Shown here one piece after another: positions 7,887-40,591 of a DNA stretch of 64,000 nucleotides. The notes beneath the pieces were generated by a model, which saw nothing but the letters and a program-made list of their open reading frames with translations, had not been told where the DNA came from and did no database searches. Location of the stretch: contig JAZNBN010000016.1 of NCBI GenBank assembly GCA_045587125.1, forward strand, positions 96,728 to 160,727, in the 5' to 3' direction. Within the stretch, counting starts at the first letter, position 1, and the number at the start of each line of letters is the position of its first letter. The stretch is from Candidatus Enterousia sp. (GTDB lineage Bacteria; Pseudomonadota; Alphaproteobacteria; Rs-D84). The position numbers and the translations under genes are program-made.

Positions 7887-7891
7887 AAATA

Positions 7892-7916
7892 AAAAAATCC
7901 CTGTGTGGGATTTTTT
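7892..7916 (+). terminator. Rho-independent terminator after ATPase gene
   Basis: AATCCC-TGTGT-GGGATT + T6. Confidence 0.75.
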
Positions 7917-7944
7917 GCAAGACAAAATAACTAAGGGGGCGAAA

Positions 7945-8964
7945 ATGAATAAAAAAATAATCGTAACAGGTGGTACTGGTTATATCGGTTCACATACAAC
8001 AGTTGCATTACAGAATGCAGGTTTTAGTGTTGTTATAATGGATAATTTATCCAATTCAACAATGACAAGCATAGATGGTATCGAACAAATTACAGGAATT
8101 CGCCCAGAATTTATCAAAGTTGATTGTGCAGATGCATCAGCACTTAAAACAGCATTTTCTGCACATAGTGACGCAATAGGGGTAATTCATTTTGCAGCAT
8201 TAAAGGCGGTTGGTGAATCTGTAGAAAAACCATTGCTGTATTATCGTAATAATTTGAATTGCTTGATAAATGTTTTGGATATGATGTGTGAATTTAATAT
8301 TTCAAATATTGTTTTTTCGTCATCTGCAACTGTTTACGGTGTTCCAGATGCTTTGCCGGTTACCGAAGAAACGCCTTTGCAACCTGCGACTTCGCCATAT
8401 GGGCAAACTAAGGTTATGGCTGAAAATATTATTCGTGATACTGTACGTGCATATCCGAGAATTCATGCGACATTACTGCGGTATTTTAATCCAATTGGTG
8501 CACACCCCAGTGGTTTAATTGGTGAATTGCCAAATGGTGTACCGAATAATTTAATGCCATATATAACTCAAACTGTTGCTGGTATTCGGCCATTCTTAAA
8601 TATTTTTGGTGATGATTATGATACACCTGATGGATATTGTGTACGTGATTATATTGATGTCAATGATTTAGCAAATGCACATGTTGCAGCAATGCGTCAC
8701 ATGATGGATAATTCAGATGGTATAAGTGTATTTAATTTGGGAACAGGGCATGGTGTATCTGTTATGGAATTGGTTAAAAAATTTGAAATTGCCACAGGTT
8801 TAACAGTGCCCTATAAAATTGCACCGCGTCGTTCAGGTGATGTTCCATCAATTTGGGCAGATGCGTCATTGGCATATCGTGTATTGGGTTGGCGTGCAGA
8901 AACCTCCCTGCAAGATACTTTAGCTTCTGCATGGCGTTGGCAAGAAAAGTTAAATAATAAATAA
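7945..8964 (+). CDS. galE: UDP-glucose 4-epimerase
   Basis: VTGGTGYIGSH Rossmann, SSSATVYG, PYGQTK (YxxxK). Start at the ATG behind GGGGG. Confidence 0.9.
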   Translation: MNKKIIVTGGTGYIGSHTTVALQNAGFSVVIMDNLSNSTMTSIDGIEQITGIRPEFIKVDCADASALKTAFSAHSDAIGVIHFAALKAVGESVEKPLLYYRNNLNCLINVLDMMCEFNISNIVFSSSATVYGVPDALPVTEETPLQPATSPYGQTKVMAENIIRDTVRAYPRIHATLLRYFNPIGAHPSGLIGELPNGVPNNLMPYITQTVAGIRPFLNIFGDDYDTPDGYCVRDYIDVNDLANAHVAAMRHMMDNSDGISVFNLGTGHGVSVMELVKKFEIATGLTVPYKIAPRRSGDVPSIWADASLAYRVLGWRAETSLQDTLASAWRWQEKLNNK

Positions 8965-9023
8965 AAGGCGTTCTTGATTTTATTCCGTCTTTAATTTAAA
9001 ATATTTGCAATAAAGGAGAAAGT

Positions 9024-19815: not shown

Positions 19816-20871
19816 TTAACTATTCTGTTTTAATTTCTTAAAAAGACCTATCGCAACAGGGGTGTCTAAGTAATGTGAGCTTTGTTCAGTGGGCTGTGTT
19901 TCATATAATTCTTTATCGTTCTTTGGTGATACGTAAATCTTTTTTTGTAATCGCATAATTCGTTGTCCTAACATTCCATAATACGGATTTTGGTCATCGA
20001 TTCTGTGGCCGTCCTCGTGGGATAGTATCATCAGAAAATCTAGCAAGGGATTGCTTTCAATCAATGCGTTTGTTGTGATTCTTATCTGCTTAGTCGAATG
20101 GCTATAAGTATTTTTACCGTCATGGCTTGGCATAAAACCGCCAGCAACCCCAAATTTTTGTGCACTTGCATCTATTATGAGTTTGGCAAAATTATCGATT
20201 TCTTTTTGTGATAAATGTTCAAATTTTTGTGCCATATCAAAAAGATATTTGTTCTCAGATATAATATTCCAATATGTTTCTAATCGTTCGCCAGTAATAA
20301 AGTCTCTATTCCTTAAATCGGTTAACGTTATCATTTCTTGTGCATATCTTTTATTTAGCTCAATTATTGACTTGTTATCTTGCGGGGTAATTTGTGCTAA
20401 TTCTTTTTCATATTTGCGTTCCAATTTTTCTATTTCTGGGTCAAATGTAGAATAATTGGTGGCAGATATTTCTGGTGCGGCTTGCCATTCTGTATCTGCT
20501 TGTGCTAAATCGGGATATTGTGTTTTTAGAATTTCATATTCTTGTGTGTTGGTCGGATTTAAATTGTATTTTATTAGTATTGCACGTATTTTGTTTTCTG
20601 CATGAAAAGCGGCATTTATTTCATCCCATGTTTTCCAGTGTTTGATACTTGCGTACATGGTATCAAGGTCATCATTGAACATCGCTTTGAAATCTTGCCA
20701 AGTGTGATTTCTGTTGCCATATTTTTTGTATGCTTCATAAAACAGTTTATCCTCAGGTGACATTTTTTCTACTTGCATAATATAGTCCAAGAAAGGTGTC
20801 TGTGTTTCGTTGGCTTGGATTATTTTATTAATAATATTTTTTGTTGCGATATTGAATTGTTCTGCTTTCAT
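19816..20871 (-). CDS. Hypothetical protein with HExxH motif (putative metallopeptidase-like)
   Basis: ILSHEDGHRIDDQ near the C-terminus, helical N-terminal two thirds, no signal peptide. Confidence 0.5.
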   Translation of the reverse strand: MKAEQFNIATKNIINKIIQANETQTPFLDYIMQVEKMSPEDKLFYEAYKKYGNRNHTWQDFKAMFNDDLDTMYASIKHWKTWDEINAAFHAENKIRAILIKYNLNPTNTQEYEILKTQYPDLAQADTEWQAAPEISATNYSTFDPEIEKLERKYEKELAQITPQDNKSIIELNKRYAQEMITLTDLRNRDFITGERLETYWNIISENKYLFDMAQKFEHLSQKEIDNFAKLIIDASAQKFGVAGGFMPSHDGKNTYSHSTKQIRITTNALIESNPLLDFLMILSHEDGHRIDDQNPYYGMLGQRIMRLQKKIYVSPKNDKELYETQPTEQSSHYLDTPVAIGLFKKLKQNS

Positions 20872-20880
20872 TGTCTATCT

Positions 20881-20940
20881 CTTCTTTCCCGCAAATTATA
20901 CCACAGGCAATCACACTTTGCATCACAGTTTTTTGTGTTT
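20881..20940 (-). promoter_or_regulatory. Promoter/leader cassette, copy 3
   Basis: About 50 nt identical to copy 2 (TTTCCCGCAAATTATACCACAGGCAATCACACTTTGCATCACAGTTTTT on + strand), directly upstream of 19816..20871. Confidence 0.65.
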
Positions 20941-21075
20941 TGGGGGCATGGGGTGGGTACGGAGTGGAATCGCGCGCCCCAAATAAAATAAAACCCAACC
21001 GCCCGCACTTTTGTGTTCGCAAAAAGAAACGCTGGAATTTTAAGATTGTATACGGAAAAAGTGGATTATAATTAC

Positions 21076-21104
21076 TTGAAAAAAACAAAAACCTGCTTTA
21101 TAAT
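21076..21104 (+). promoter_or_regulatory. Sigma70-type promoter of the tyrS leader
   Basis: TTGAAA (21076-21081), 17-nt spacer, TATAAT (21099-21104). Confidence 0.55.
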
Positions 21105-21113
21105 AAATGAGAA

Positions 21114-21194
21114 ATGACAAAAAGTAGTTTGCATTTTAATCAGATTTCAGACGGTGCGCAATTTTGCGTACGTGGTTTTTATTACGCCTATTGA
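21114..21194 (+). CDS. Candidate tyrS leader peptide (26 aa, MTKSSLHFNQISDGAQFCVRGFYYAY)
   Basis: ATG-to-TGA ORF ending TTT TAT TAC GCC TAT TGA. The stop abuts the first arm of the alternative hairpins. The RBS is weak. Confidence 0.5.
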   Translation: MTKSSLHFNQISDGAQFCVRGFYYAY

Positions 21195-21263
21195 CCCCTT
21201 ATGGTGTTATGGGTTTGATCGGCTTTGGCACCATAAGGGGTATATGCCAAAGCCAATTTTTTT
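21195..21263 (+). promoter_or_regulatory. Antiterminator/terminator switch (attenuator) upstream of tyrS
   Basis: 12-bp stem 21195-21206/21229-21240 is mutually exclusive with the 9-bp stem 21221-21229/21246-21254, which is followed by T7. Confidence 0.6.
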
Positions 21264-21295
21264 ATTCATTAAACAAAAAACAAAGGATTTAAGTA

Positions 21296-22495
21296 ATGAA
21301 AACCAAAGAACAAATTATTGATGAAATTCTGGATAGGGGCATAATCGTTGATATTTTGCCATCGCGTGCGGAATTTAAGAAAAAATTATTAACCGAAAAA
21401 CTGCGCTTTTTTATCGGCGCCGACCCGACAAATACATCGCTGCACCTGTCGCATGCCAAGAACTTTATGTTATTGGAAGAGTTCAGAAAATTGGGACACG
21501 AAGTCTTTGTATTGTTCGGTGACTTTACCGCATGCATTGGCGACCCCAGTGACCGCAATTCTGCGCGCGCCAGATTAACACCGGAACAAGTACACGAATT
21601 TTCAGCAGACTGGGTGCGTCAAATCTCGCCAATTATCAACTTTAACGACCCAGACAACCCAGCCAAAGTGGTCTTTAATGGTGAATGGTTGAATAAACTG
21701 ACTATGCATGATTTGATTGAATTGTCGTCAAATACAACGGTTCAACACATGTTGGAACGTGATATGTTTCAAAAACGGTTGGCGAACAACCGGCCAATTC
21801 ACCTGCACGAATTCCTGTACCCAATTTTCCAGGGCTTTGATTCTGTTGCACTGGACGCGGATGTTGAATTGTGTGGCACGGACCAGACGTTTAATGCGCT
21901 GATGGGGCGGACATTATTGCGCAAATTAAAGAACAAAGAAAAATTCATTGTGTGCAATAACCTGATGGAAAATCCGATAACTGGCGAACTGATGTCAAAA
22001 TCACGTGGTACAGGTGTTTTCTTGAACACAGATGCAGACACGATGTTTGCGCAAATCATGGCGCAACCCGATGAAATGATACGCATATTGTTGATAAATA
22101 ATACACACGTTCCATTGTCGGAAATAGACGCGTTGGATATTGAAAATGAACCGATGCGTGCAAAACTGTTCACCGCACAAAAAATAACAGAAATATTCCA
22201 CGGTGCGGGCGCGGCGATTTTGGCACAGGAAAACTGGTGCAAAACATTTTCTGACCGGTCTTTCCCAGACAATGCACCAGAAATCAAAACCACGCAAGAC
22301 GAATTATCCGTAATGGAAATCTTGAAATTAGGTATGCCGGACGCATCAAACAGTGAATTGCGCAGACTTGTTACCCAAAACGCAGTTACTATAAACGATG
22401 ACAAGGCAAACGACCTAAATCAAGCATTCATAACCGATAAACCATTATGCGTGCGTGTTGGTCGTAAAATATTTTTCAAAGTCACAAAAAAATAA
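21296..22495 (+). CDS. tyrS: Tyrosyl-tRNA synthetase
   Basis: HIGH-type motif TSLHLSH, KMSKS-type motif LMSKSRG, C-terminal S4-like domain (ELRRLVTQNAVTIND). Confidence 0.88.
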   Translation: MKTKEQIIDEILDRGIIVDILPSRAEFKKKLLTEKLRFFIGADPTNTSLHLSHAKNFMLLEEFRKLGHEVFVLFGDFTACIGDPSDRNSARARLTPEQVHEFSADWVRQISPIINFNDPDNPAKVVFNGEWLNKLTMHDLIELSSNTTVQHMLERDMFQKRLANNRPIHLHEFLYPIFQGFDSVALDADVELCGTDQTFNALMGRTLLRKLKNKEKFIVCNNLMENPITGELMSKSRGTGVFLNTDADTMFAQIMAQPDEMIRILLINNTHVPLSEIDALDIENEPMRAKLFTAQKITEIFHGAGAAILAQENWCKTFSDRSFPDNAPEIKTTQDELSVMEILKLGMPDASNSELRRLVTQNAVTINDDKANDLNQAFITDKPLCVRVGRKIFFKVTKK

Positions 22496-22506
22496 AGAGG
22501 TAAAAA

Positions 22507-23508
22507 ATGGCAATATTGGAACGATTGGCAGAAATGCAAAATGCCCATGGTAAAAACCGTCTGGTAATGATACTGGACGGTATGGGTGTTGCGGTAATGA
22601 GTAAATTACTGGATGCAAATGGATTTTTTTGTCGTCATTTGGCGGACGTTGAAACGGCCATTATTCCTGCGACAACCGTGGCGGCAACAACCGCATATCG
22701 CACAGGCAAAATGCCGTGGGAAACAGGATTTATTGGTTGGGCGCAATATTATTCTGAAACAGACGAAGTTATCGAAGTATTCAGAAGTACAAACCTATAT
22801 ACAGGCGAAGTGTCTAAAATGCCCCAAACCACAAATACGCTACCGTGTAAAACAGTAGTTGAAGAATTGAATAACAAAGGTCGTTCTGCGTACGAAGTTA
22901 TGCCTGGCTTTGCCCCGGGCGGTTTTGATACGTTTGAACAATGGCTGGCACGTATTGTGGAATTGTGCAATACAGAATCTGACGCGTATATTTACGCATA
23001 CTGGACAGAACCAGATTCAACCCTGCATGAATTAGGCTCAGACGCCCCAGCGGTCAAAACATTGTTGCGCGATATGGAACAACAGATAGAATTTGCACTA
23101 AAACAGATTCGCAATAAAACGGATGTCTTGATAACAGCCGACCATGGGCATACAGATATTGAATCTTTGTTTGTTGACGATGTTCCAGAATTGCTGGACT
23201 GTTTGTTGCATCCATTGTCACTGGAAAGTCGTTGTGTGTCGCTGTTTATAAAACCAGAATCTCTGGCAGAATTTCCAGGCCTGTTCAATAAACACTTCGG
23301 CAAATGGTTCAAATTGGTGACCAAATCAGAATTTGAAAAACAATACCTGCATGCAGAATGTCCTGTGCGTTTTATTGGTGACTTTGTTGCGCTGGCAACT
23401 GATAAATATGACTTGAAACAGCGACCAGATACAATTGTTCTTAAAAGTCACCACGCAGGTATAACTTCAGACGAATTAGAAATACCGATTATAAAAATAA
23501 GTATATGA
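22507..23508 (+). CDS. Alkaline-phosphatase-superfamily enzyme (nucleotide pyrophosphatase/phosphodiesterase-like)
   Basis: MILDGMG, nucleophile region PATTVAATTAYRTG, ITADHGHTD. Starts 12 nt after the tyrS stop. Confidence 0.65.
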   Translation: MAILERLAEMQNAHGKNRLVMILDGMGVAVMSKLLDANGFFCRHLADVETAIIPATTVAATTAYRTGKMPWETGFIGWAQYYSETDEVIEVFRSTNLYTGEVSKMPQTTNTLPCKTVVEELNNKGRSAYEVMPGFAPGGFDTFEQWLARIVELCNTESDAYIYAYWTEPDSTLHELGSDAPAVKTLLRDMEQQIEFALKQIRNKTDVLITADHGHTDIESLFVDDVPELLDCLLHPLSLESRCVSLFIKPESLAEFPGLFNKHFGKWFKLVTKSEFEKQYLHAECPVRFIGDFVALATDKYDLKQRPDTIVLKSHHAGITSDELEIPIIKISI

Positions 23509-23541: not shown

Positions 23542-24033
23542 ATGACAAAGGAAACCAAAATGTCAGAACGTGCAATGTTTAAGGGTGTAATTAACCTGAT
23601 TATAAAACAAGACGACAAAGTCTTACTGTTCTTTCGCAATGATGGATTTTTTAACTATGATGGTGGTTGGTGGGTTTTGCCGGCAGGACACATTGAACAG
23701 GGTGAAACTGCCATGGCAGCAGCCATACGTGAGGCAAAAGAAGAACTGGATATCGACATTGCGCCCGACGACATCAAATGCGTACACGTTACCAGCAATC
23801 TGGCCAGTCGCACAGAATCTTTTGATTTCTTTTTTGAGGTATCAAAATACACTGGCACAATTCGCAACTGCGAAGGGGATAAATGTGCCGATATGCAGTA
23901 TTTCACATTGGACGAAGTCGCCAAATTGAAGAACGTTGTTTCAACAACCCGTATATCATTGGCGGGATTGGCGCGTGGCGAAATATATTCCGAATGCAAA
24001 TCATATCGCAGTGAACAAAAGGATACAAAATGA
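23542..24033 (+). CDS. Nudix hydrolase
   Basis: Nudix box GHIEQGETAMAAAIREAKEELDI. Confidence 0.85.
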   Translation: MTKETKMSERAMFKGVINLIIKQDDKVLLFFRNDGFFNYDGGWWVLPAGHIEQGETAMAAAIREAKEELDIDIAPDDIKCVHVTSNLASRTESFDFFFEVSKYTGTIRNCEGDKCADMQYFTLDEVAKLKNVVSTTRISLAGLARGEIYSECKSYRSEQKDTK

Positions 24034-24812
24034 TAAAAGAACTAAGTTATTCTGCATATATTTTGCCGGTGCGTGATGGACAGGTCGCCTTGCTGAAATA
24101 CGGTGAAAATGGATACGGACCAATTGGTGGGCGACTGGATGATGGCGAAGATTTTTTGACTGCGCTGCGGCGTGAACTGACCGAAGAACTGGGCGATGGT
24201 GCAACAATGCTGGCAGATAGTGCGATTGAAATTCCGGTGCCATATGCATTTCGTCACCCAACCCCCGAACGGGCACAACGTCGTGGCACATGGGGCGAAG
24301 AACATCATTTTTATATCGTTCACGTCCCAGATGATATGGAATTGAATTTCTGCGAAAATCGCCCCGAAGAAATTTCGGTTGCATGGGTCGCACCAGACGA
24401 CTTATTAACCCCACAAATCACACCATTTGACGATATGCGTGAATTTTATTCGAACCACATATTACCGAACCTAAATTGTCGGTTTTCAATGAGCCTGCGT
24501 CCTGAATACTATGAAATGGTGCTTTCTGGCGAAAAAGATATTGAACTGCGTCTGTATGATGAAAAGCGTCGCAGAATGCACAACGGTGACACTGTTTTGA
24601 TTTACAACGCGCAAAATCGCAATGATTATATTCGTGCAAAGATCGTTCGCCTGCATATTGTGCGCAGTTTTGCAGACTTGGCCACAAAAATCAGTATGCC
24701 ACGCACAGGATTTGCGTCGTTAAACGCACTGATGTCTGCAATATCAAAATTCTATGATGCTGAAATGGAATCCAAATACGGTATTGTGGGGATAGAGTTA
24801 GAGGTTATATAA
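24030..24812 (+). CDS. Nudix hydrolase fused to a C-terminal ASCH domain
   Basis: Nudix box GGRLDDGEDFLTALRRELTEELG. C-terminal ~115 aa is ASCH-like (MSLRPEYYEMVLSGEKDIELRLYDEKRR...). The ATGA start overlaps the upstream Nudix gene. Confidence 0.8.
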   Translation: MIKELSYSAYILPVRDGQVALLKYGENGYGPIGGRLDDGEDFLTALRRELTEELGDGATMLADSAIEIPVPYAFRHPTPERAQRRGTWGEEHHFYIVHVPDDMELNFCENRPEEISVAWVAPDDLLTPQITPFDDMREFYSNHILPNLNCRFSMSLRPEYYEMVLSGEKDIELRLYDEKRRRMHNGDTVLIYNAQNRNDYIRAKIVRLHIVRSFADLATKISMPRTGFASLNALMSAISKFYDAEMESKYGIVGIELEVI

Positions 24813-25146
24813 CCACAAACTCGTTTAATTCCAGCCAATCAGTTTTCTGAAAATCGGGAAAGTATTTGTTAAAAAAGTCAATGTGGACCGTACGCCAGTA
24901 TGCCAGGGACAGGTCGCCTTCGCCCTCTATTTTTGCCCATGCGTCATCAATGTCACAAAACCGACACTTTCGAACGGCTGTAATTTGAATTCGTATTGTT
25001 TCGCCACGACTGTTATAGATTTCCTGAATGTCACCAATTTTTGCCATTGGTTCTTCGTCATAATTCCGGCTACAGGTTCCACGTTTGTGCCCATTGCGCA
25101 CCAGTTCAAACAATTCATCATTATCAAAAGTCCAACGGTTATCCAT
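24805..25146 (-). CDS. ASCH-domain protein
   Basis: ELVRNGHKRGTCS...IGDIQEIYNSRGE..IQITAVR...EGEGDLSLAYWR pattern of ASCH (YqfB-like) proteins. Confidence 0.65.
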   Translation of the reverse strand: MDNRWTFDNDELFELVRNGHKRGTCSRNYDEEPMAKIGDIQEIYNSRGETIRIQITAVRKCRFCDIDDAWAKIEGEGDLSLAYWRTVHIDFFNKYFPDFQKTDWLELNEFVVI

Positions 25147-25187
25147 GCGCTACACCATTTTCTGTGATTATAAGTTTATTAACCTCG

Positions 25188-25385
25188 TCACTCGCCACCA
25201 TTTATCCACGCCAGGCAACCGTCATATCTGTGTGGTTCCATCGCCAATGGGATACATAGAATTGGTTTGTTTGGGTCAATTATACTTTCAAATAATTTAT
25301 TTGAAATAATTGTTTGTTCGTCGCTACCACCACCAAGTATTATATGTATTATTGTTTCCCTTTGTTTAGTGTTTCTATAACCCAA
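25188..25385 (-). pseudogene. Possible N-terminal fragment of an S51/glutamine-amidotransferase-like peptidase gene
   Basis: IILGGGS...KPILCIPLA resembles the start of peptidase E-like proteins. Only 65 codons remain, and they overlap the end of the upstream Nudix gene. Confidence 0.3.
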
Positions 25386-25765
25386 TTTTTTATAACGGTT
25401 GGATACAGTTTTGTATCGGCCAGTTCCGATATTTTTATTTTTTCAAATCCGATTAAATCTTCCTGGCTGGTAATGTTTTCGGTGTTTATATCTACACGTT
25501 TAACAACTTCAATCCCGTACAGGAAATTTCCATTGGAATCATAGCCCTGATTTTCAATAGCCAATAAGATACCATCATGAATAGTGATGTCAGATTCTGC
25601 AACACCCATTTCTTCATTCAGTTCACGTGTAATGCACTGATTCAATGTTTCGCCAATTTCCAATCCGCCACCAGGCAAGAAATAATAACCGCCAGCCAAG
25701 TGCTTGCATAAAACGATGCTATCACCTTGCACAATTAAACATCTGCTTGTTGTTTGTGTTCGCAT
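25349..25765 (-). CDS. Nudix hydrolase
   Basis: Nudix box GGGLEIGETLNQCITRELNEEMGV. Confidence 0.85.
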   Translation of the reverse strand: MRTQTTSRCLIVQGDSIVLCKHLAGGYYFLPGGGLEIGETLNQCITRELNEEMGVAESDITIHDGILLAIENQGYDSNGNFLYGIEVVKRVDINTENITSQEDLIGFEKIKISELADTKLYPTVIKNWVIETLNKGKQ

Positions 25766-25784
25766 GACTATATTCCCCCTTGTT

Positions 25785-26630
25785 TTATCTTATAATCGTG
25801 TGCTTGAACCACTGTTCTTGGAAAGCGGTTTTTTGTTCAATATATTCATCTGCAAAATCAAACCCATCTGGTACAACAACCAGTTTGTCGTCATTATCAT
25901 TAGTACGGTGAATGATTGCGATACATCGCCCCAGAAAATCCTTTAACGGATAATCTGGTCCCAATACATATGCATCTAATTCTTCGCCATCGCCCGATAT
26001 GGTGTTTGGTATAAATCCATAATTCACTTCGTATGTAAAGCCGTGTTTTGGATGTTTACTACCCATGGGGCGGTCCATTTGTACACGAACTAATTTGCCC
26101 AAGAAATCACGTGCATTGACTGGTATGGGATTTACCATTTTCTGATAATTCAAAACCATATTAAACCCTGGAACAATAGACGGAATAAATTCATTGTCGT
26201 ACTGCATGTGTTGAATATCCGCCAGTGTTGCCCACTTGACGGATTGTACCTCGCTTGCCTGTGGTTTTAAATCAGAAATTTTAGCATTACTGTGCACTAG
26301 CCACACATCAACGAAATCCATCGGTCGCTTAATTGTGCCAACCAGTACAGATTTTTCGGGGTCTGGTGTCAGTCCTAACTCTTCCATTGTTTCGCGAACA
26401 CACGCATCCCAACTGGATTCGCCTGCGATTGCCCCGCCACCAGTCTGGCCCCACATGTTTGGAAATTTCTTGGCCGTACCCATGCGTTGTTGCAACAGGT
26501 ATTCGCCGGCATCATTTACAATCCATACATGCACAGACAGCTTGTTCAATCCGCTGGGGATTTGTTGTCCGCGTTCAATTGTTGAAACTGGATTGCGCAA
26601 ATTATCATACAGGGTGTTTTTTTCGGACAT
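25785..26630 (-). CDS. Nudix hydrolase fused to a short inorganic-pyrophosphatase-like C-terminal domain
   Basis: Nudix box GGGAIAGESSWDACVRETMEELGL. C-terminus has NYGFIPNT, GDGEELDAYVLG and NDDKLVVV, resembling family I PPase motifs. Confidence 0.7.
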   Translation of the reverse strand: MSEKNTLYDNLRNPVSTIERGQQIPSGLNKLSVHVWIVNDAGEYLLQQRMGTAKKFPNMWGQTGGGAIAGESSWDACVRETMEELGLTPDPEKSVLVGTIKRPMDFVDVWLVHSNAKISDLKPQASEVQSVKWATLADIQHMQYDNEFIPSIVPGFNMVLNYQKMVNPIPVNARDFLGKLVRVQMDRPMGSKHPKHGFTYEVNYGFIPNTISGDGEELDAYVLGPDYPLKDFLGRCIAIIHRTNDNDDKLVVVPDGFDFADEYIEQKTAFQEQWFKHTIIR

Positions 26631-39024: not shown

Positions 39025-39053
39025 TAAAAAAACGCCCAATCGGGCGTTTTTTT
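39025..39053. terminator. Bidirectional terminator
   Basis: A8-CGCCC-AATC-GGGCG-T7 between convergent genes. Confidence 0.8.
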
Positions 39054-40413
39054 ATTTTTTAACAATTTCTAATATTTTTGAAACAATGTCATCAATTGCG
39101 ATGCGTTCTTGTTCCATTGTGTCGCGATGACGTAATGTAACTGTGCCATCTTCCATTGTTTGATGATCCACAGTTATACATACAGGTGTTCCAATTTCAT
39201 CGTGTCTGCGATAGTTTTTGCCAATATTGCCGGAATTTTCCAATTCAATACGTCCGATACCCAATTTGCGCAATTTTGCAACGATATCGTTTGATATATT
39301 TAACAATTCTGGAACATTGCGTGCCAATGGAATAACCGCCGCCTTGACCGGTGCCAGTGCAGGTTTTAATTTCAACACAGTACGTGTTTTGCCGTCACCT
39401 AAATCTTCGTCCGTGTATGCTTCTAACATAACGGCCAACATTGCACGATTAACACCCATTGCAGTTTCAATAACAAATGGGATAAAGTTTTCGCCGCTTT
39501 GTGGGTCAGAATACGACAGTTTTGTTGTACTGTCTTTATTTTCCATGACATTTGCGTTTATTTTGAAATCGCCCTGTGATTTTGTGTGGGACCCTAAATC
39601 AAAATCTTGTCTGTTATGAATGCCTTCAACTTCATCGAATCCGTCTGGGAATTCGTATTCAATGTCAACAGCAGCCTTGGCATAGTGTGCCAGTTTGTCA
39701 TGTGGTGCAAAACGTAATTTATTGGCTGGGATTCCCAATACGTTTACCCACCAAGCCATACGTTCGTCCATCCACATTTTATGGAATTTTTCATCATCTG
39801 ATGGATTAACAAAATATTGCATTTCAGCCTGTTCAAATTCACGCATACGGAATACAAAACCACGTGGTGAAATTTCGTTACGGAACGCCTTGCCAATTTG
39901 GGCAATGCCAAATGGTAATTTATGTGGGCGTGCATCCAATACGTTTTTAAAGTTTGTATATGTTGTTGTGGCTGTTTCTGGACGCAGATATGCGTTTATA
40001 GCACCGTCTGCGGTCGCCCCGATTGACAGCCCCATCATCAATTGATACGCACGTGGTTCAGTGATTTCAGTACTGCCACAATTGTCGCATTTTGAAGTGT
40101 CTTTCATTTTATCCTGGCGCATACGTGCACCGCATTTTTTGCATTCAACCAATGGATCAGAAAAACCGGCTTCGTGTCCAGAATATTTCCACAATAATCT
40201 GTTGGTGATTAATGCGGCATCCAAACCTTCGATATCATCACGTGAATAAATCATGGCATTCCACCATGCATCACGAATGTTTTTCATTAATTCAATACCG
40301 TATGGACCATAATCGTATGTACCGCCCAATCCACCATATATTTCAGAACCTGTGAAAATAAAACCACGACGTTTGCAAAGTGCGACAATATCATTAACTG
40401 TTTTTGCTGGCAT
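39052..40413 (-). CDS. glyQS: Glycyl-tRNA synthetase, single-chain (alpha2) type
   Basis: RRGFIFTGSEIYGG, FRNEISPR, Zn-knuckle CKKCG...CDNCG, C-terminal anticodon-binding domain. Confidence 0.92.
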   Translation of the reverse strand: MPAKTVNDIVALCKRRGFIFTGSEIYGGLGGTYDYGPYGIELMKNIRDAWWNAMIYSRDDIEGLDAALITNRLLWKYSGHEAGFSDPLVECKKCGARMRQDKMKDTSKCDNCGSTEITEPRAYQLMMGLSIGATADGAINAYLRPETATTTYTNFKNVLDARPHKLPFGIAQIGKAFRNEISPRGFVFRMREFEQAEMQYFVNPSDDEKFHKMWMDERMAWWVNVLGIPANKLRFAPHDKLAHYAKAAVDIEYEFPDGFDEVEGIHNRQDFDLGSHTKSQGDFKINANVMENKDSTTKLSYSDPQSGENFIPFVIETAMGVNRAMLAVMLEAYTDEDLGDGKTRTVLKLKPALAPVKAAVIPLARNVPELLNISNDIVAKLRKLGIGRIELENSGNIGKNYRRHDEIGTPVCITVDHQTMEDGTVTLRHRDTMEQERIAIDDIVSKILEIVKK

Positions 40414-40591
40414 AACTTAATCCCTTAATTTTTGTAACGGAATATATATTATACAGTTTTTATCTTTTTACAATAAAAAAACCAAATTAAAAATTATATA
40501 TAACACGCTTGACAATCAGATGTTTTGTGTTTAATTTTATTTGTATATTTACTATAACTATGTCTGATACTTCGTACAAGGAACCAAAAAT

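Follow-up and report, generated by a model that had tools for sequence, protein, structure and literature searches.

A predicted leader-peptide attenuator with tyrosine sensor codons upstream of tyrS in Candidatus Enterousia-like alphaproteobacteria

Known regulators of synthetase genes and the tyrS locus

Transcription attenuation by translated leader peptides is textbook knowledge for tryptophan, histidine, phenylalanine, leucine, threonine and isoleucine/valine. In the trpL leader of Escherichia coli, segment 1 of a 1:2 hairpin contains the sensor codons, and the untranslated RNA terminates. As for tyrosine, tyrS is the founding example of T-box control in Firmicutes, and the tyrosine genes of E. 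coli are controlled by the TyrR protein. Among synthetase genes, the pheM-pheST attenuator is mentioned in two reports (PMC1262725; bioRxiv 10.64898/2026.09.09.750475), and leader-peptide attenuators have been predicted for trpS and leuS in Streptomyces (PMC1262725) and for hisS paralogues in Bacillus (PMC2965389). A first, sequence-only reading of the locus described here knew of no such attenuator for tyrS, and our literature searches, which found pheST, trpS, leuS and hisS, also yielded none for tyrS. No tyrosine-responsive leader was found in these searches: the only leader with Tyr among its sensor codons is aroR (Phe-Tyr-Phe), which precedes aroF in Corynebacterium glutamicum and is reported to respond to phenylalanine and not to tyrosine (PMC11802643).

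The 64-kb window, i.e., the whole stretch of DNA that was analysed, comes from a Candidatus Enterousia-like alphaproteobacterium of the order Rs-D84. Its tyrS gene (21296-22495) lies on the plus strand, as do the promoter, the leader elements and the phosphodiesterase-like gene described below, and encodes a tyrosine--tRNA ligase of 399 aa (TIGR00234, 276 bits for a cutoff of 113.8; Pfam PF00579, tRNA-synt_1b). Taken together, comparative sequence analysis and folding models make it likely that tyrS transcription is set by the supply of charged tRNA-Tyr, through a ribosome-mediated leader-peptide transcription attenuator.

The proposed element resembles pheM-pheST of E. coli and Salmonella in that a short leader ORF with many codons for the cognate amino acid precedes a synthetase gene, antiterminator and terminator hairpins are mutually exclusive, and tRNA charging would be sensed via the ribosome position. 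It differs from it by the amino acid, Tyr instead of Phe, by the lack of any sequence or structural homology, by its host, an alphaproteobacterium of reduced genome, and by an mRNA predicted to be nearly leaderless. Moreover, the antiterminator here adjoins the stop codon, and an anti-antiterminator of the 1:2 type finds no support in covariation. With trpL of E. coli, it shares regulatory codons located 3-4 codons before the stop, a stop-codon ribosome that would mask the antiterminator 5' arm, a leader stop codon ~70 nt upstream of the termination point and an upstream hairpin that is a candidate pause element. Unlike in trpL, this upstream hairpin (P0) competes with no other segment and the naked RNA is predicted to fold into the antiterminator. 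The trp-type logic initially attributed to the locus is thus retained as a ribosome-position switch, but not as a strict four-segment copy of trp.

As in the tyrS T-box of Bacillus subtilis and other Firmicutes, poor tRNA-Tyr charging would switch a terminator to an antiterminator. However, the T-box binds uncharged tRNA directly (Stem I, T-box bulge), whereas the sensor would here be a translated ORF, and no T-box sequence is found. The Rfam searches agree with the sequence-only reading that this is not a T-box (RF00230): at the gathering threshold, no T-box or amino-acid leader family is matched in the whole window; the region 20850-21400, searched at E up to 10, gives chance-level matches to unrelated families only, none of them to a T-box nor to the His, Leu, Thr, Trp and Phe leader families. 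Together with this absence of match, the small size of the transcript before the terminator, only ~150 nt of which 81 nt are ORF, led us to reject the T-box reading. Judged from these searches, the resemblance to the curated Rfam leaders is one of mechanism, not of descent.

The Streptomyces trpS/leuS and Bacillus hisS leaders are, like ours, comparative-genomics predictions upstream of synthetase genes outside gamma-proteobacteria, but they concern other amino acids and other phyla, without tyrS or tyrosine codons. The aroR leader has in common with ours a Tyr codon among its sensor codons and an aromatic amino-acid context; it differs by preceding a biosynthetic gene and by its single Tyr between Phe, compared to three Tyr in the last four codons. 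Finally, one report describes mycobacterial polycysteine leaderless short ORFs that sense cysteine by ribosome stalling (bioRxiv 10.1101/834739). As described there, they are similarly regulatory short ORFs on leaderless transcripts that sense one amino acid, except that the amino acid is cysteine, that the hosts are Actinobacteria and that operonic expression is attenuated.

Promoter, leader ORF and tyrosine codons

A sigma-70-type promoter (21076-21104) lies upstream of tyrS, with a -35 box TTGAAA (21076-21081), a 17-nt spacer and a -10 box TATAAT (21099-21104), all as first read. It matches the consensus at 11 of 12 positions and is the top promoter-like site within 20500-22700. As no promoter-like site is found between the terminator and tyrS (21264-21295), tyrS must be transcribed through the terminator, and the promoter is, from this arrangement, the one that drives the leader and tyrS together. 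Its -10 box ends 9 nt before the leader ATG, so that the leader mRNA would be nearly leaderless and would offer no space for a Shine-Dalgarno sequence at the usual distance. The promoter position places the putative transcription start site near the leader ATG, and suggests that translation of the ORF depends on leaderless or near-leaderless initiation.

The tyrS gene has a Shine-Dalgarno sequence (AAGGA, 21283-21287), 8 nt upstream of its ATG in an unstructured A-rich spacer; as it is unsequestered in every predicted fold, control would be transcriptional and not translational. An alkaline-phosphatase-superfamily phosphodiesterase-like gene (22507-23508; Pfam PF01663) starts 11 nt after tyrS, with its own Shine-Dalgarno sequence, and is probably co-transcribed with it. 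An obligatory linkage of the leader to this gene was rejected, as the two are linked in only about one third of the loci. Elsewhere in the window, 7887-9023 holds an epimerase-like ORF and is not a 1.1-kb gene-free gap.

The same promoter-leader module is present in all 54 related loci recovered. Loci were counted as related when their TyrRS was at least 74% identical, with the addition of one contig (L083) in which the leader is located before a gene other than tyrS. The 53 full-length leaders come from 35 genome-derived loci and 18 complete metagenome-derived ones, and 51 sequences make up the nucleotide alignment. In 53/53 related loci the promoter matches the consensus at 10 or more of 12 positions, and its -10 box ends 8-10 nt upstream of the leader ATG. 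Upstream of the promoter, the sequences of the related loci are unrelated; the promoter-leader-tyrS module travels as a unit among differing genomic contexts.

Between promoter and tyrS lies the leader ORF (21114-21194, MTKSSLHFNQISDGAQFCVRGFYYAY), conserved in frame and length and consisting of 26 codons and a TGA stop (21192-21194). Its last five sense codons are TTT TAT TAC GCC TAT, exactly as claimed, and the last four (21180-21191), encoding the invariant Tyr23, Tyr24, Ala25 and Tyr26, are the putative sensor codons. This Tyr cluster near the ORF end is cognate to the downstream gene, tyrS. Tyr accounts for 3.8% of the codons in the window, and the chance of finding at least three Tyr in the last four codons is ~2e-4. 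The stop codon directly adjoins the antiterminator and the next base is always C.

A failure of the leader ORF and its Tyr codons to be conserved in relatives had been named beforehand as refuting; when checked, both are conserved. A 26-codon ORF ending in FYYAY is kept in all 53 full-length leaders, whose frame 0 is never stopped, compared to 1-4 stops always present in frames 1 and 2. Indels, which are many in the 3' spacer, are absent across the 81 nt of the ORF. Among the 51 aligned sequences, the stop codon is only ever TGA or TAA, and Tyr codons undergo only synonymous change (Tyr24, TAC to TAT). Eight lineages, less than 70% identical over codons 2-19, each keep the frame open, the chance of which is 0.16-0.29 per diverged lineage. 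The N-terminal 19 residues vary freely among relatives and substitutions are evenly distributed over the three codon positions (30/31/33), so that the N-terminal peptide sequence itself is apparently not under selection. The leader is maintained as an open reading frame and would be translated in the proposed attenuator.

Promoter, short ORF and terminator formally resemble a minimal gene. Alternatively, therefore, the ORF could be a self-standing small-protein gene, terminator included, or else the hairpins could be an unregulated, constitutive 5'-UTR structure, without any tyrosine control of tyrS. We regard this as extremely improbable, since the N-terminal 19 residues are unconserved and without codon-position bias, tyrS has no separate promoter after the terminator, the Tyr enrichment fits the downstream gene, and covariation (see below) keeps a terminator-competing helix adjoining the stop codon.

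The 3' part of the leader is conserved at the nucleotide level, from 21172 to 21257, beyond the coding requirement, and the alignment indicates that RNA-level constraint of some kind acts on this segment. Synonymous changes are absent from its GGT, TTT, GCC and two TAT codons, and the changes of Gly21 are all non-synonymous (Val, Cys); the constraint on the codons around Gly21 thus looks nucleotide-level rather than peptide-level. The antiterminator loop (21207-21220) is almost invariant.

Such conservation of codons 20-26 and of the loop beyond coding need, with no obvious need for an invariant loop, would fit a ribosome-independent RNA. The region 21150-21260 would then be a riboswitch or a protein- or tRNA-binding RNA that acts on the same terminator and antiterminator, e.g., an operator for autoregulation by TyrRS or a sensor of tRNA-Tyr other than a T-box, the ORF being incidental. 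This appears unlikely, however, given that all lineages have kept the frame open and its length unchanged through the variable 5' half, that the stop is swapped only between two stop codons and that the Tyr codons change only synonymously. Furthermore, no Rfam family whatsoever is matched, and ~100 nt holding two exclusive helices leave little space for an aptamer. A mimic of the tRNA-Tyr anticodon loop, CUGUAAA, is not in the leader; this motif occurs in the 5' regions of some distant relatives, with no consistent hairpin, and was rejected.

The invariant C-terminal residues and the constant C after the stop bring to mind a TnaC-type arrest peptide, C being the weakest +4 termination context in E. 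coli. Free tyrosine together with ...GFYYAY would slow release at TGA-C or TAA-C, the ribosome would remain on the antiterminator arm and termination would occur at high tyrosine, a regulatory logic that would make sense. We nevertheless hold it to be very improbable: position 21 (Gly) has changed to Val or Cys but never synonymously, which is the opposite of peptide-level selection, the antiterminator stem begins with that C, which accounts for its invariance, and sensing of tRNA charging is a simpler account of three Tyr codons. A related, more speculative proposal, to which we give only a slim chance, is that ...GFYYAY and stop-C form an arrest module sensing free tyrosine, or free Tyr and Tyr-tRNA, or that the abundant ~150-nt RNA expected from termination, or else the leader peptide, has an additional role in trans like that of rnTrpL and peTrpL in Sinorhizobium. 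If true, the arrest module would be a peptide/ligand-gated switch, a mechanism not known for any synthetase.

Competing hairpins and the predicted ribosome-dependent switch

The attenuator that we favour relies on two competing helices downstream of the leader stop codon, both of which were found by our reading as previously described. The antiterminator (21195-21240) is a perfect 12-bp stem adjoining the TGA, in which S2 (CCCCTTATGGTG, 21195-21206) pairs with S4 (CACCATAAGGGG, 21229-21240). The intrinsic terminator (21218-21263) pairs S3 (21218/21221-21229) with S5 (21246-21254/21257); its core is a 9-bp hairpin, GGCTTTGGC (21221-21229) with GCCAAAGCC (21246-21254), followed by AA and T7 (21257-21263). 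The terminator announced ~35 nt before tyrS is therefore present, but its T-run ends 32 nt upstream of the ATG. The two stems had been said to overlap and to be mutually exclusive. The overlap is restricted to C21229, the only shared base, but exclusivity holds and is topological: both stems together would be a pseudoknot with a 5-nt linker spanning a 12-bp helix. An extended antiterminator, in which 21207-21215 pairs with 21221-21228, is also predicted; the G-U-rich antiterminator extension shows no covariation and is kept as a possibility. The loop sequence TTATGG (21207-21212) was rejected as an alternative partner of S4, since it shows no covariation where S2 and S4 vary. Predicted stabilities are -27.5 kcal/mol for the antiterminator and -18.3 kcal/mol for the terminator, whose 21221-21254 hairpin is not flagged by the terminator scan because its loop exceeds 8 nt. 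In most relatives, the terminator core stem is of 11 bp, and it is followed by U5-U8.

The antiterminator is paired in 98.9% of cells of the alignment and the terminator in 96%. Each of the two competing helices has a single fully compensatory pair (UA 29 / AU 19 / CG 2 and UA 45 / CG 4, respectively), and a second varying pair of the terminator is GC 30 / GU 21. A covariation check of the alternative hairpins had been suggested: compensatory changes are found in P0, S2:S4 and S3:S5, where 7 pairs change on both sides compared to 0-2 in register-shifted controls, and the observed covariation score is reached by 0/500 shuffles. RNAalifold independently returns P0 and the antiterminator as consensus structure, and the 196-nt leader folds with z = -3.1 compared to shuffles. 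By these covariation patterns, both competing helices are maintained by selection.

P0 (21154-21171), a hairpin absent from the sequence-only reading, is the helix with the best covariation support. Located inside the ORF, it has the sequence GTGCGCA-ATTT-TGCGTAC, followed by GTGGTTTTT, and pairs 21154-21160 with 21165-21171. Compensatory changes are found in five of its seven pairs (e.g., GC in 25 sequences and AU in 25), despite the amino-acid replacements that they cause in the leader peptide. P0 is predicted to have a stability of -8.5 kcal/mol, and the terminator scan marked it as terminator-like. P0 could act as an RNA-polymerase pause hairpin, synchronising transcription with translation.

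Downstream of P0, S1 (TGGTTTT, the Gly21-Phe22 codons, 21173-21179) could, in ribosome-free RNA, pair with 21249-21255. This pairing is part of the minimum-free-energy fold of the naked RNA, with a mean probability of 0.81. Covariation is never seen in its pairs, which are disrupted in 4-6 sequences; this S1:S5 'superattenuation' helix is therefore kept as a possibility only. Other pairs of the naked RNA, 21186-21191 with 21242-21247, were rejected because they are broken in many relatives. The predicted ground state of the ribosome-free RNA is the antiterminator; termination without translation would need the putative S1:S5 pairing.

The idea that a stalled ribosome and a stop-codon ribosome select different helices is reproduced in silico by constrained folding, in which ribosome-covered positions are masked. 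When the A site holds Tyr23 or Tyr24, the ribosome does not cover 21195-21206, and masking the window accordingly gives the antiterminator (p = 0.88-1.0). With the stop codon in the A site, 21195 to ~21202 is masked, and masking as at Tyr26 or at the stop gives the terminator (p = 1.0). At the stop position with S2 masked, the terminator reaches p of at least 0.79 in 51/51 homologues, and at the Tyr23/24 stall positions the antiterminator wins in 45/51; the two never coexist in partition-function folds. In one group of sequences (L023-L027), the terminator is the favoured equilibrium fold at the stall positions too, so that a switch would there need co-transcriptional kinetics. The initial claim of stalling on the Tyr codons is supported by these models for Tyr23 and Tyr24, but not for Tyr26, which is too close to the stem to be an 'on' codon. 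A ribosome stalled at Tyr26 should act like a stop-codon ribosome, and Tyr23 and Tyr24 would thus be the effective sensor codons.

According to the proposed attenuator, transcription would begin a few nt upstream of the leader ATG, and P0 and the U-rich stretch that follows it would probably pause RNA polymerase until the leader ribosome catches up. When Tyr-tRNA is plentiful, the ribosome would pass Tyr23, Tyr24 and Tyr26, reach the stop and cover 21195-21206. With the antiterminator 5' arm covered, S3 would be free to pair with S5, and the terminator hairpin and U7 would end transcription at ~21263; the product would be a ~150-nt leader RNA, with little mRNA for tyrS. Under a shortage of Tyr-tRNA, Tyr23 or Tyr24 would occupy the A site of a stalled ribosome, whose front edge would be at ~21192-21195. 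The 12-bp antiterminator would then form once 21229-21240 is transcribed, sequestering the terminator 5' arm, and the read-through polymerase would enter tyrS and, in the window genome, the phosphodiesterase-like gene. Under this model, the leader would be expected to respond to tyrosine supply in vivo.

Distribution and significance of the tyrS leader

The leader is not found upstream of 14 Patescibacteria tyrS genes (42-55% identity), nor in five alphaproteobacterial/Rickettsiales-like MAG lineages whose TyrRS is 63-66% identical, and the conserved-core nhmmer profile has no match in either set of tyrS loci. The possibility that the leader was inherited along with the gene from these distant TyrRS relatives was rejected, as it is missing upstream of their tyrS. 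As far as its distribution shows, the leader element is real and clade-specific, with an origin within a single genus-level clade. The nhmmer search finds it as a single copy per locus and detects no other in the 64-kb window, which led us to reject a second copy elsewhere, e.g., before a tyrosine transporter. We also rejected leader attenuation as a habit of the synthetase genes of this genome: the 5' UTR of glyS (39052-40413, minus strand) is short and plain.

The hosts are uncultured gut and rumen symbionts with genomes of less than 1 Mb that have lost most regulators. Amino-acid biosynthesis is missing in Enterousia (PMC12306168), and raising TyrRS could therefore be among the few responses left to poor tRNA-Tyr charging.

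If confirmed, the element would be the first attenuator known to date with ribosome stalling specific to tyrosine, and another independent invention of attenuation for a synthetase gene. As it spans only ~190 nt from promoter to tyrS and is apparently leaderless, it could be a portable sensor of tRNA-Tyr charging. The read coverage of the leader compared to that of tyrS in rumen and gut metatranscriptomes could also report tyrosine limitation in situ. Finally, that so reduced a genome keeps or has invented a regulation of tyrS suggests that these bacteria are truly limited by the charging of tRNA-Tyr.

Anatomy and conservation of the tyrS leader

Direct reading of 20700-21500 places, on the + strand, a -35 box (TTGAAA, 21076-21081), a 17-nt spacer and a -10 box (TATAAT, 21099-21104) ahead of a 26-codon leader ORF (MTKSSLHFNQISDGAQFCVRGFYYAY, 21114-21194) ending in TTT TAT TAC GCC TAT TGA. 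It is followed by two overlapping stems, the antiterminator S2:S4, formed by CCCCTTATGGTG (21195-21206) and its complement CACCATAAGGGG (21229-21240), and the terminator S3:S5, whose core is formed by GGCTTTGGC (21221-21229) and its complement GCCAAAGCC (21246-21254). AA and a run of seven T (21257-21263) then precede the tyrS ATG at 21296. All these elements lie where the sequence-only reading had placed them when it proposed a Tyr-codon attenuator.

The leader promoter matches the consensus at 11/12 positions and is the top sigma-70-like site of the region, where the number of promoter-like sites, as a count taken alone, is not above that of shuffled sequence. From its position, the 5' UTR of the leader mRNA would be only ~0-4 nt long, and the mRNA therefore leaderless or nearly so. 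The 196-nt leader folds more strongly than its shuffles (z = -3.1). The ORF downstream is a genuine tyrS, matching TIGR00234 (276 bits, for a cutoff of 113.8) and Pfam PF00579. As no promoter-like site was found on scanning the terminator-tyrS interval, and as the tyrS Shine-Dalgarno is predicted to lie in unstructured A-rich RNA, regulation of tyrS by the leader would most simply act on transcription.

A TyrRS protein search of representative genomes gave 35 loci (76-100% identity), all in MAGs of rumen, colon or faecal origin whose label is Candidatus Enterousia or Alphaproteobacteria; the 260 nt upstream of tyrS carry the module described above in 35/35. A scan of metagenome contigs for a degenerate F-Y-Y-A-Y-stop motif, any synonymous codon being permitted, provided 19 further real leaders and 5 chance matches. 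As this motif was demanded by the scan, the metagenome leaders are no independent test of it, and the diversity gained lies elsewhere in the leader. Genome- and metagenome-derived leaders together make an alignment of 51 distinct sequences. At 53/53 loci a promoter of at least 10/12 is found, the end of its -10 box lying 8-10 nt ahead of the leader ATG; the DNA upstream of the promoter is unrelated among these loci.

The leader ORF has 26 codons in every aligned sequence; its frame never contains a stop codon and the two other frames always contain 1-4. Indels are absent from the 81-nt ORF, versus many in the post-terminator spacer. In at least 8 lineages, nucleotide identity over codons 2-19 drops to less than 70%, and the frame stays open in each (chance probability 0.16-0.29 per lineage). 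Substitutions in this N-terminal half are evenly distributed over codon positions 1, 2 and 3 (30/31/33), which indicates that an open frame of fixed length is kept there, and not a protein sequence. The frame and all three Tyr are thus kept in relatives, as expected of a Tyr-sensing leader in the initial proposal. The alternative of a separate small-protein gene that carries a terminator of its own fits poorly with this unconserved N-terminus, with the reliance of tyrS on read-through and with the conservation of a competing helix.

The 3' part of the leader is, on the contrary, strictly conserved at the nucleotide level (21172-21257), GGT, TTT and GCC showing no synonymous change, as could be expected of a ribosome-independent riboswitch or protein-binding RNA. 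Such an RNA would however not explain why the ORF is maintained, why the stop codon varies only between TGA and TAA, nor why the Tyr codons, invariant in amino acid, change only synonymously (solely TAC to TAT), and the leader has zero Rfam matches. A TnaC-like arrest peptide sensing free tyrosine could alternatively be read into the unchanging C-terminal residues and into the C found after the stop codon in every case; but this C doubles as the opening base of the antiterminator stem, and the few changes of Gly21 are all non-synonymous, synonymous ones being absent, which points to a constraint on RNA instead of peptide. Codons 21-26 are more conserved in nucleotide sequence than can be fully accounted for, candidate reasons being a pausing U-run, pairing of S5 with S1 (the Gly21-Phe22 codons) and codon choice.

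Competing helices and ribosome position

Base-pair counts on the alignment were used to assess helix support. The sequence-only reading had recognized both competing stems but overlooked a hairpin inside the ORF, P0 (21154-21160 / 21165-21171), in which 5/7 pairs show compensatory double changes; at one of them, 25 sequences have GC and 25 have AU. As these changes alter the encoded residues (AQFCVR, AHFCAC, ARFCVR and others), it is the RNA helix, and not the peptide, that is under selection. P0 is terminator-like in a terminator scan and, together with the following GUGGUUUUU, makes a good candidate pause signal by analogy with the 1:2 pause hairpin of the trp leader; it would hold the polymerase close to the Tyr codons and so let the ribosome catch up.

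S2:S4 is paired in 98.9% of alignment cells, one pair being UA in 29, AU in 19 and CG in 2 sequences. S3:S5, which has 11 bp in most relatives (ATTGGCTTTGG / CCAAAGCCAAT), is paired in 96% of cells, with one pair UA in 45 and CG in 4 sequences, and another GC in 30 and GU in 21. When the three helices are combined, 7 pairs change on both sides versus 0-2 in register-shifted controls, and the observed covariation score is reached by 0/500 shuffles. An independent RNAalifold run on the alignment gives P0 plus the antiterminator as consensus. Two other, possible pairings of the naked-RNA minimum-free-energy fold, S1 (TGGTTTT, 21173-21179) with 21249-21255 and a G-U-rich extension of the antiterminator (21207-21215 / 21221-21228), show no covariation, and disruptive changes occur in a few relatives.

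The two stems never coexist in partition-function folds, in agreement with their proposed mutual exclusivity, but their overlap is limited to the shared C21229. General pseudoknot geometry suggests that they are sterically exclusive, since a joint H-type pseudoknot would need a 5-8 nt linker to cross a 12-bp stem.

The effect of ribosome position was modelled by folding the transcript to the U-run with the bases that a ribosome would cover kept unpaired; these run from the 5' end and reach 11-15 nt beyond the start of the P-site codon. In the window, the mean pair probability of the antiterminator is 0.96 in naked RNA, 1.00 with Tyr23 in the A site and 0.88 with Tyr24; that of the terminator is 1.00 with either Tyr26 or the stop codon in the A site. 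Folded in isolation, the antiterminator hairpin has a predicted energy of -27.5, the terminator of -18.3 and P0 of -8.5 kcal/mol. Under the stop-position mask, terminator probability is at least 0.79 in 51/51 homologues, and under the Tyr23/24 stall masks the antiterminator prevails in 45/51. Masked folding thus reproduces, in the window and in these 45 homologues, the proposed logic in which a Tyr stall leads to the antiterminator and arrival at the stop codon to the terminator. The exceptions at the Tyr23/24 stall (related loci L023-L027, L017 and L071) have stems with a mismatch, and kinetics instead of equilibrium would have to decide their structure. Single uncompensated switch-helix mismatches are seen in L071 (S2 TTATGG, S4 CCTTAA), L019 (GGCTTGGGC), L003 (GGGA) and L017 (GGTA); they could represent intermediate steps in evolution, variation within populations or chimaeric assemblies.

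Distribution and gene neighbourhood

Enterousia belongs to the order Rs-D84; it is described as probably symbiotic or parasitic, with a genome <1 Mb that encodes no amino-acid biosynthesis (PMC12306168). The leader is present at every locus with a TyrRS of at least 74% identity, including the partial contig L084 (74%). It is absent from five lineages with 63-66% identity, where the promoter is plain and the UTR short, and from upstream of tyrS in 14/14 Patescibacteria loci. When the conserved core was used as an nhmmer profile, each positive locus gave exactly one hit, and there was no match in leader-negative loci or elsewhere in the 64-kb window. From this distribution, the leader looks like a tyrS-specific innovation of a single genus-level clade. 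The only other synthetase gene of the window, glyS (dimeric-type glycine--tRNA ligase, 39052-40413, minus strand), has neither leader ORF nor terminator in its upstream region (40414-40500), where a TTGTAA...TATAAT promoter would leave a 5' UTR of ~35 nt; attenuation is thus not a general rule among this genome's synthetase genes.

The neighbourhood of the module is often rearranged, flanks being unlike even between close relatives. An alkaline-phosphatase-superfamily phosphodiesterase-like gene (Pfam PF01663, 22507-23508, + strand) starts 11 nt past tyrS; it lies 3' of tyrS in only ~1/3 of related loci, and upstream of the leader in locus L073. The sole exception to tyrS linkage is L083 (ODAJ011855404.1), a 6.5-kb contig without tyrS, in which the full promoter-leader-terminator module (2490-2740) directly precedes a homologue of this gene (71% identity). 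The two readings are that this lineage has deleted or relocated its tyrS, and that the leader has been recruited to another gene. Just downstream of tyrS in the window, 23542-26630 is a dense cluster of hydrolase genes: NUDIX-domain ORFs (23542-24033 and 25349-25765), NUDIX-domain ORFs fused to an ASCH domain (24030-24812) or to a pyrophosphatase-like domain (25785-26630), and a separate ASCH-domain ORF (24805-25146).

After the 35 loci, the next TyrRS matches in representative genomes are from Patescibacteria (42-55% identity). In a comparison with loci L035-L050, the nearest TyrRS relatives from the genome scan outside the clade itself are those of Patescibacteria/CPR, if a small number of alphaproteobacterial or Rickettsiales-like MAGs of reduced genome (63-66%) are set apart, a likeness that could result from gene transfer among episymbiotic reduced-genome lineages. 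CUGUAAA, the sequence of a tRNA-Tyr anticodon loop, occurs in the tyrS 5' region of leader-less relatives (TyrRS 63-66%; L056:2455-2475, L058:2455-2470, L085:~1383). E. coli thrS is autoregulated through an anticodon-arm mimic and, by analogy, the motif hints at a possible mimic for autoregulation; folding gave it no consistent hairpin-loop placement.

Comparison with known attenuators

Literature search returned pheST and trpS2 of enterobacteria as classical leader-peptide attenuators, and predicted ones for trpS and leuS in Streptomyces (PMC1262725) and hisS paralogues in Bacillus (PMC2965389). The Phe-Tyr-Phe leader aroR of Corynebacterium is reported to respond to Phe, not Tyr (PMC11802643), and leaderless polycysteine regulatory ORFs are described in mycobacteria (bioRxiv 10.1101/834739). 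No report of a Tyr-codon leader peptide controlling tyrS was found in the literature outside subscription-only papers, an absence that is not proof. The tyrS leader shares the familiar geometry of E. coli trpL, with sensor codons 3-4 codons before the stop codon, and the latter immediately before the antiterminator arm, ~70 nt from the termination point. It differs from this archetype in being nearly leaderless, in having a conserved upstream hairpin that does not compete with other segments, and in its predicted default, when untranslated, to the antiterminator.

The leader does not pass for a T-box, in line with the initial preference for an attenuator, nor for a homologue of the curated Rfam leader families, and the in-silico-testable defining features of a leader-peptide attenuator are present, apart from a 1:2-type anti-antiterminator, for which S1 with 21249-21255 is a possible candidate. 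Conservation, covariation and positional folding all support the tyrS leader as a predicted leader-peptide attenuator. This kind of regulator is itself well known, and what is new is tyrosine, tyrS and the Rs-D84 Alphaproteobacteria. Its mechanism would be unsurprising, and the tyrS leader should be of interest to specialists of attenuation and of reduced genomes.
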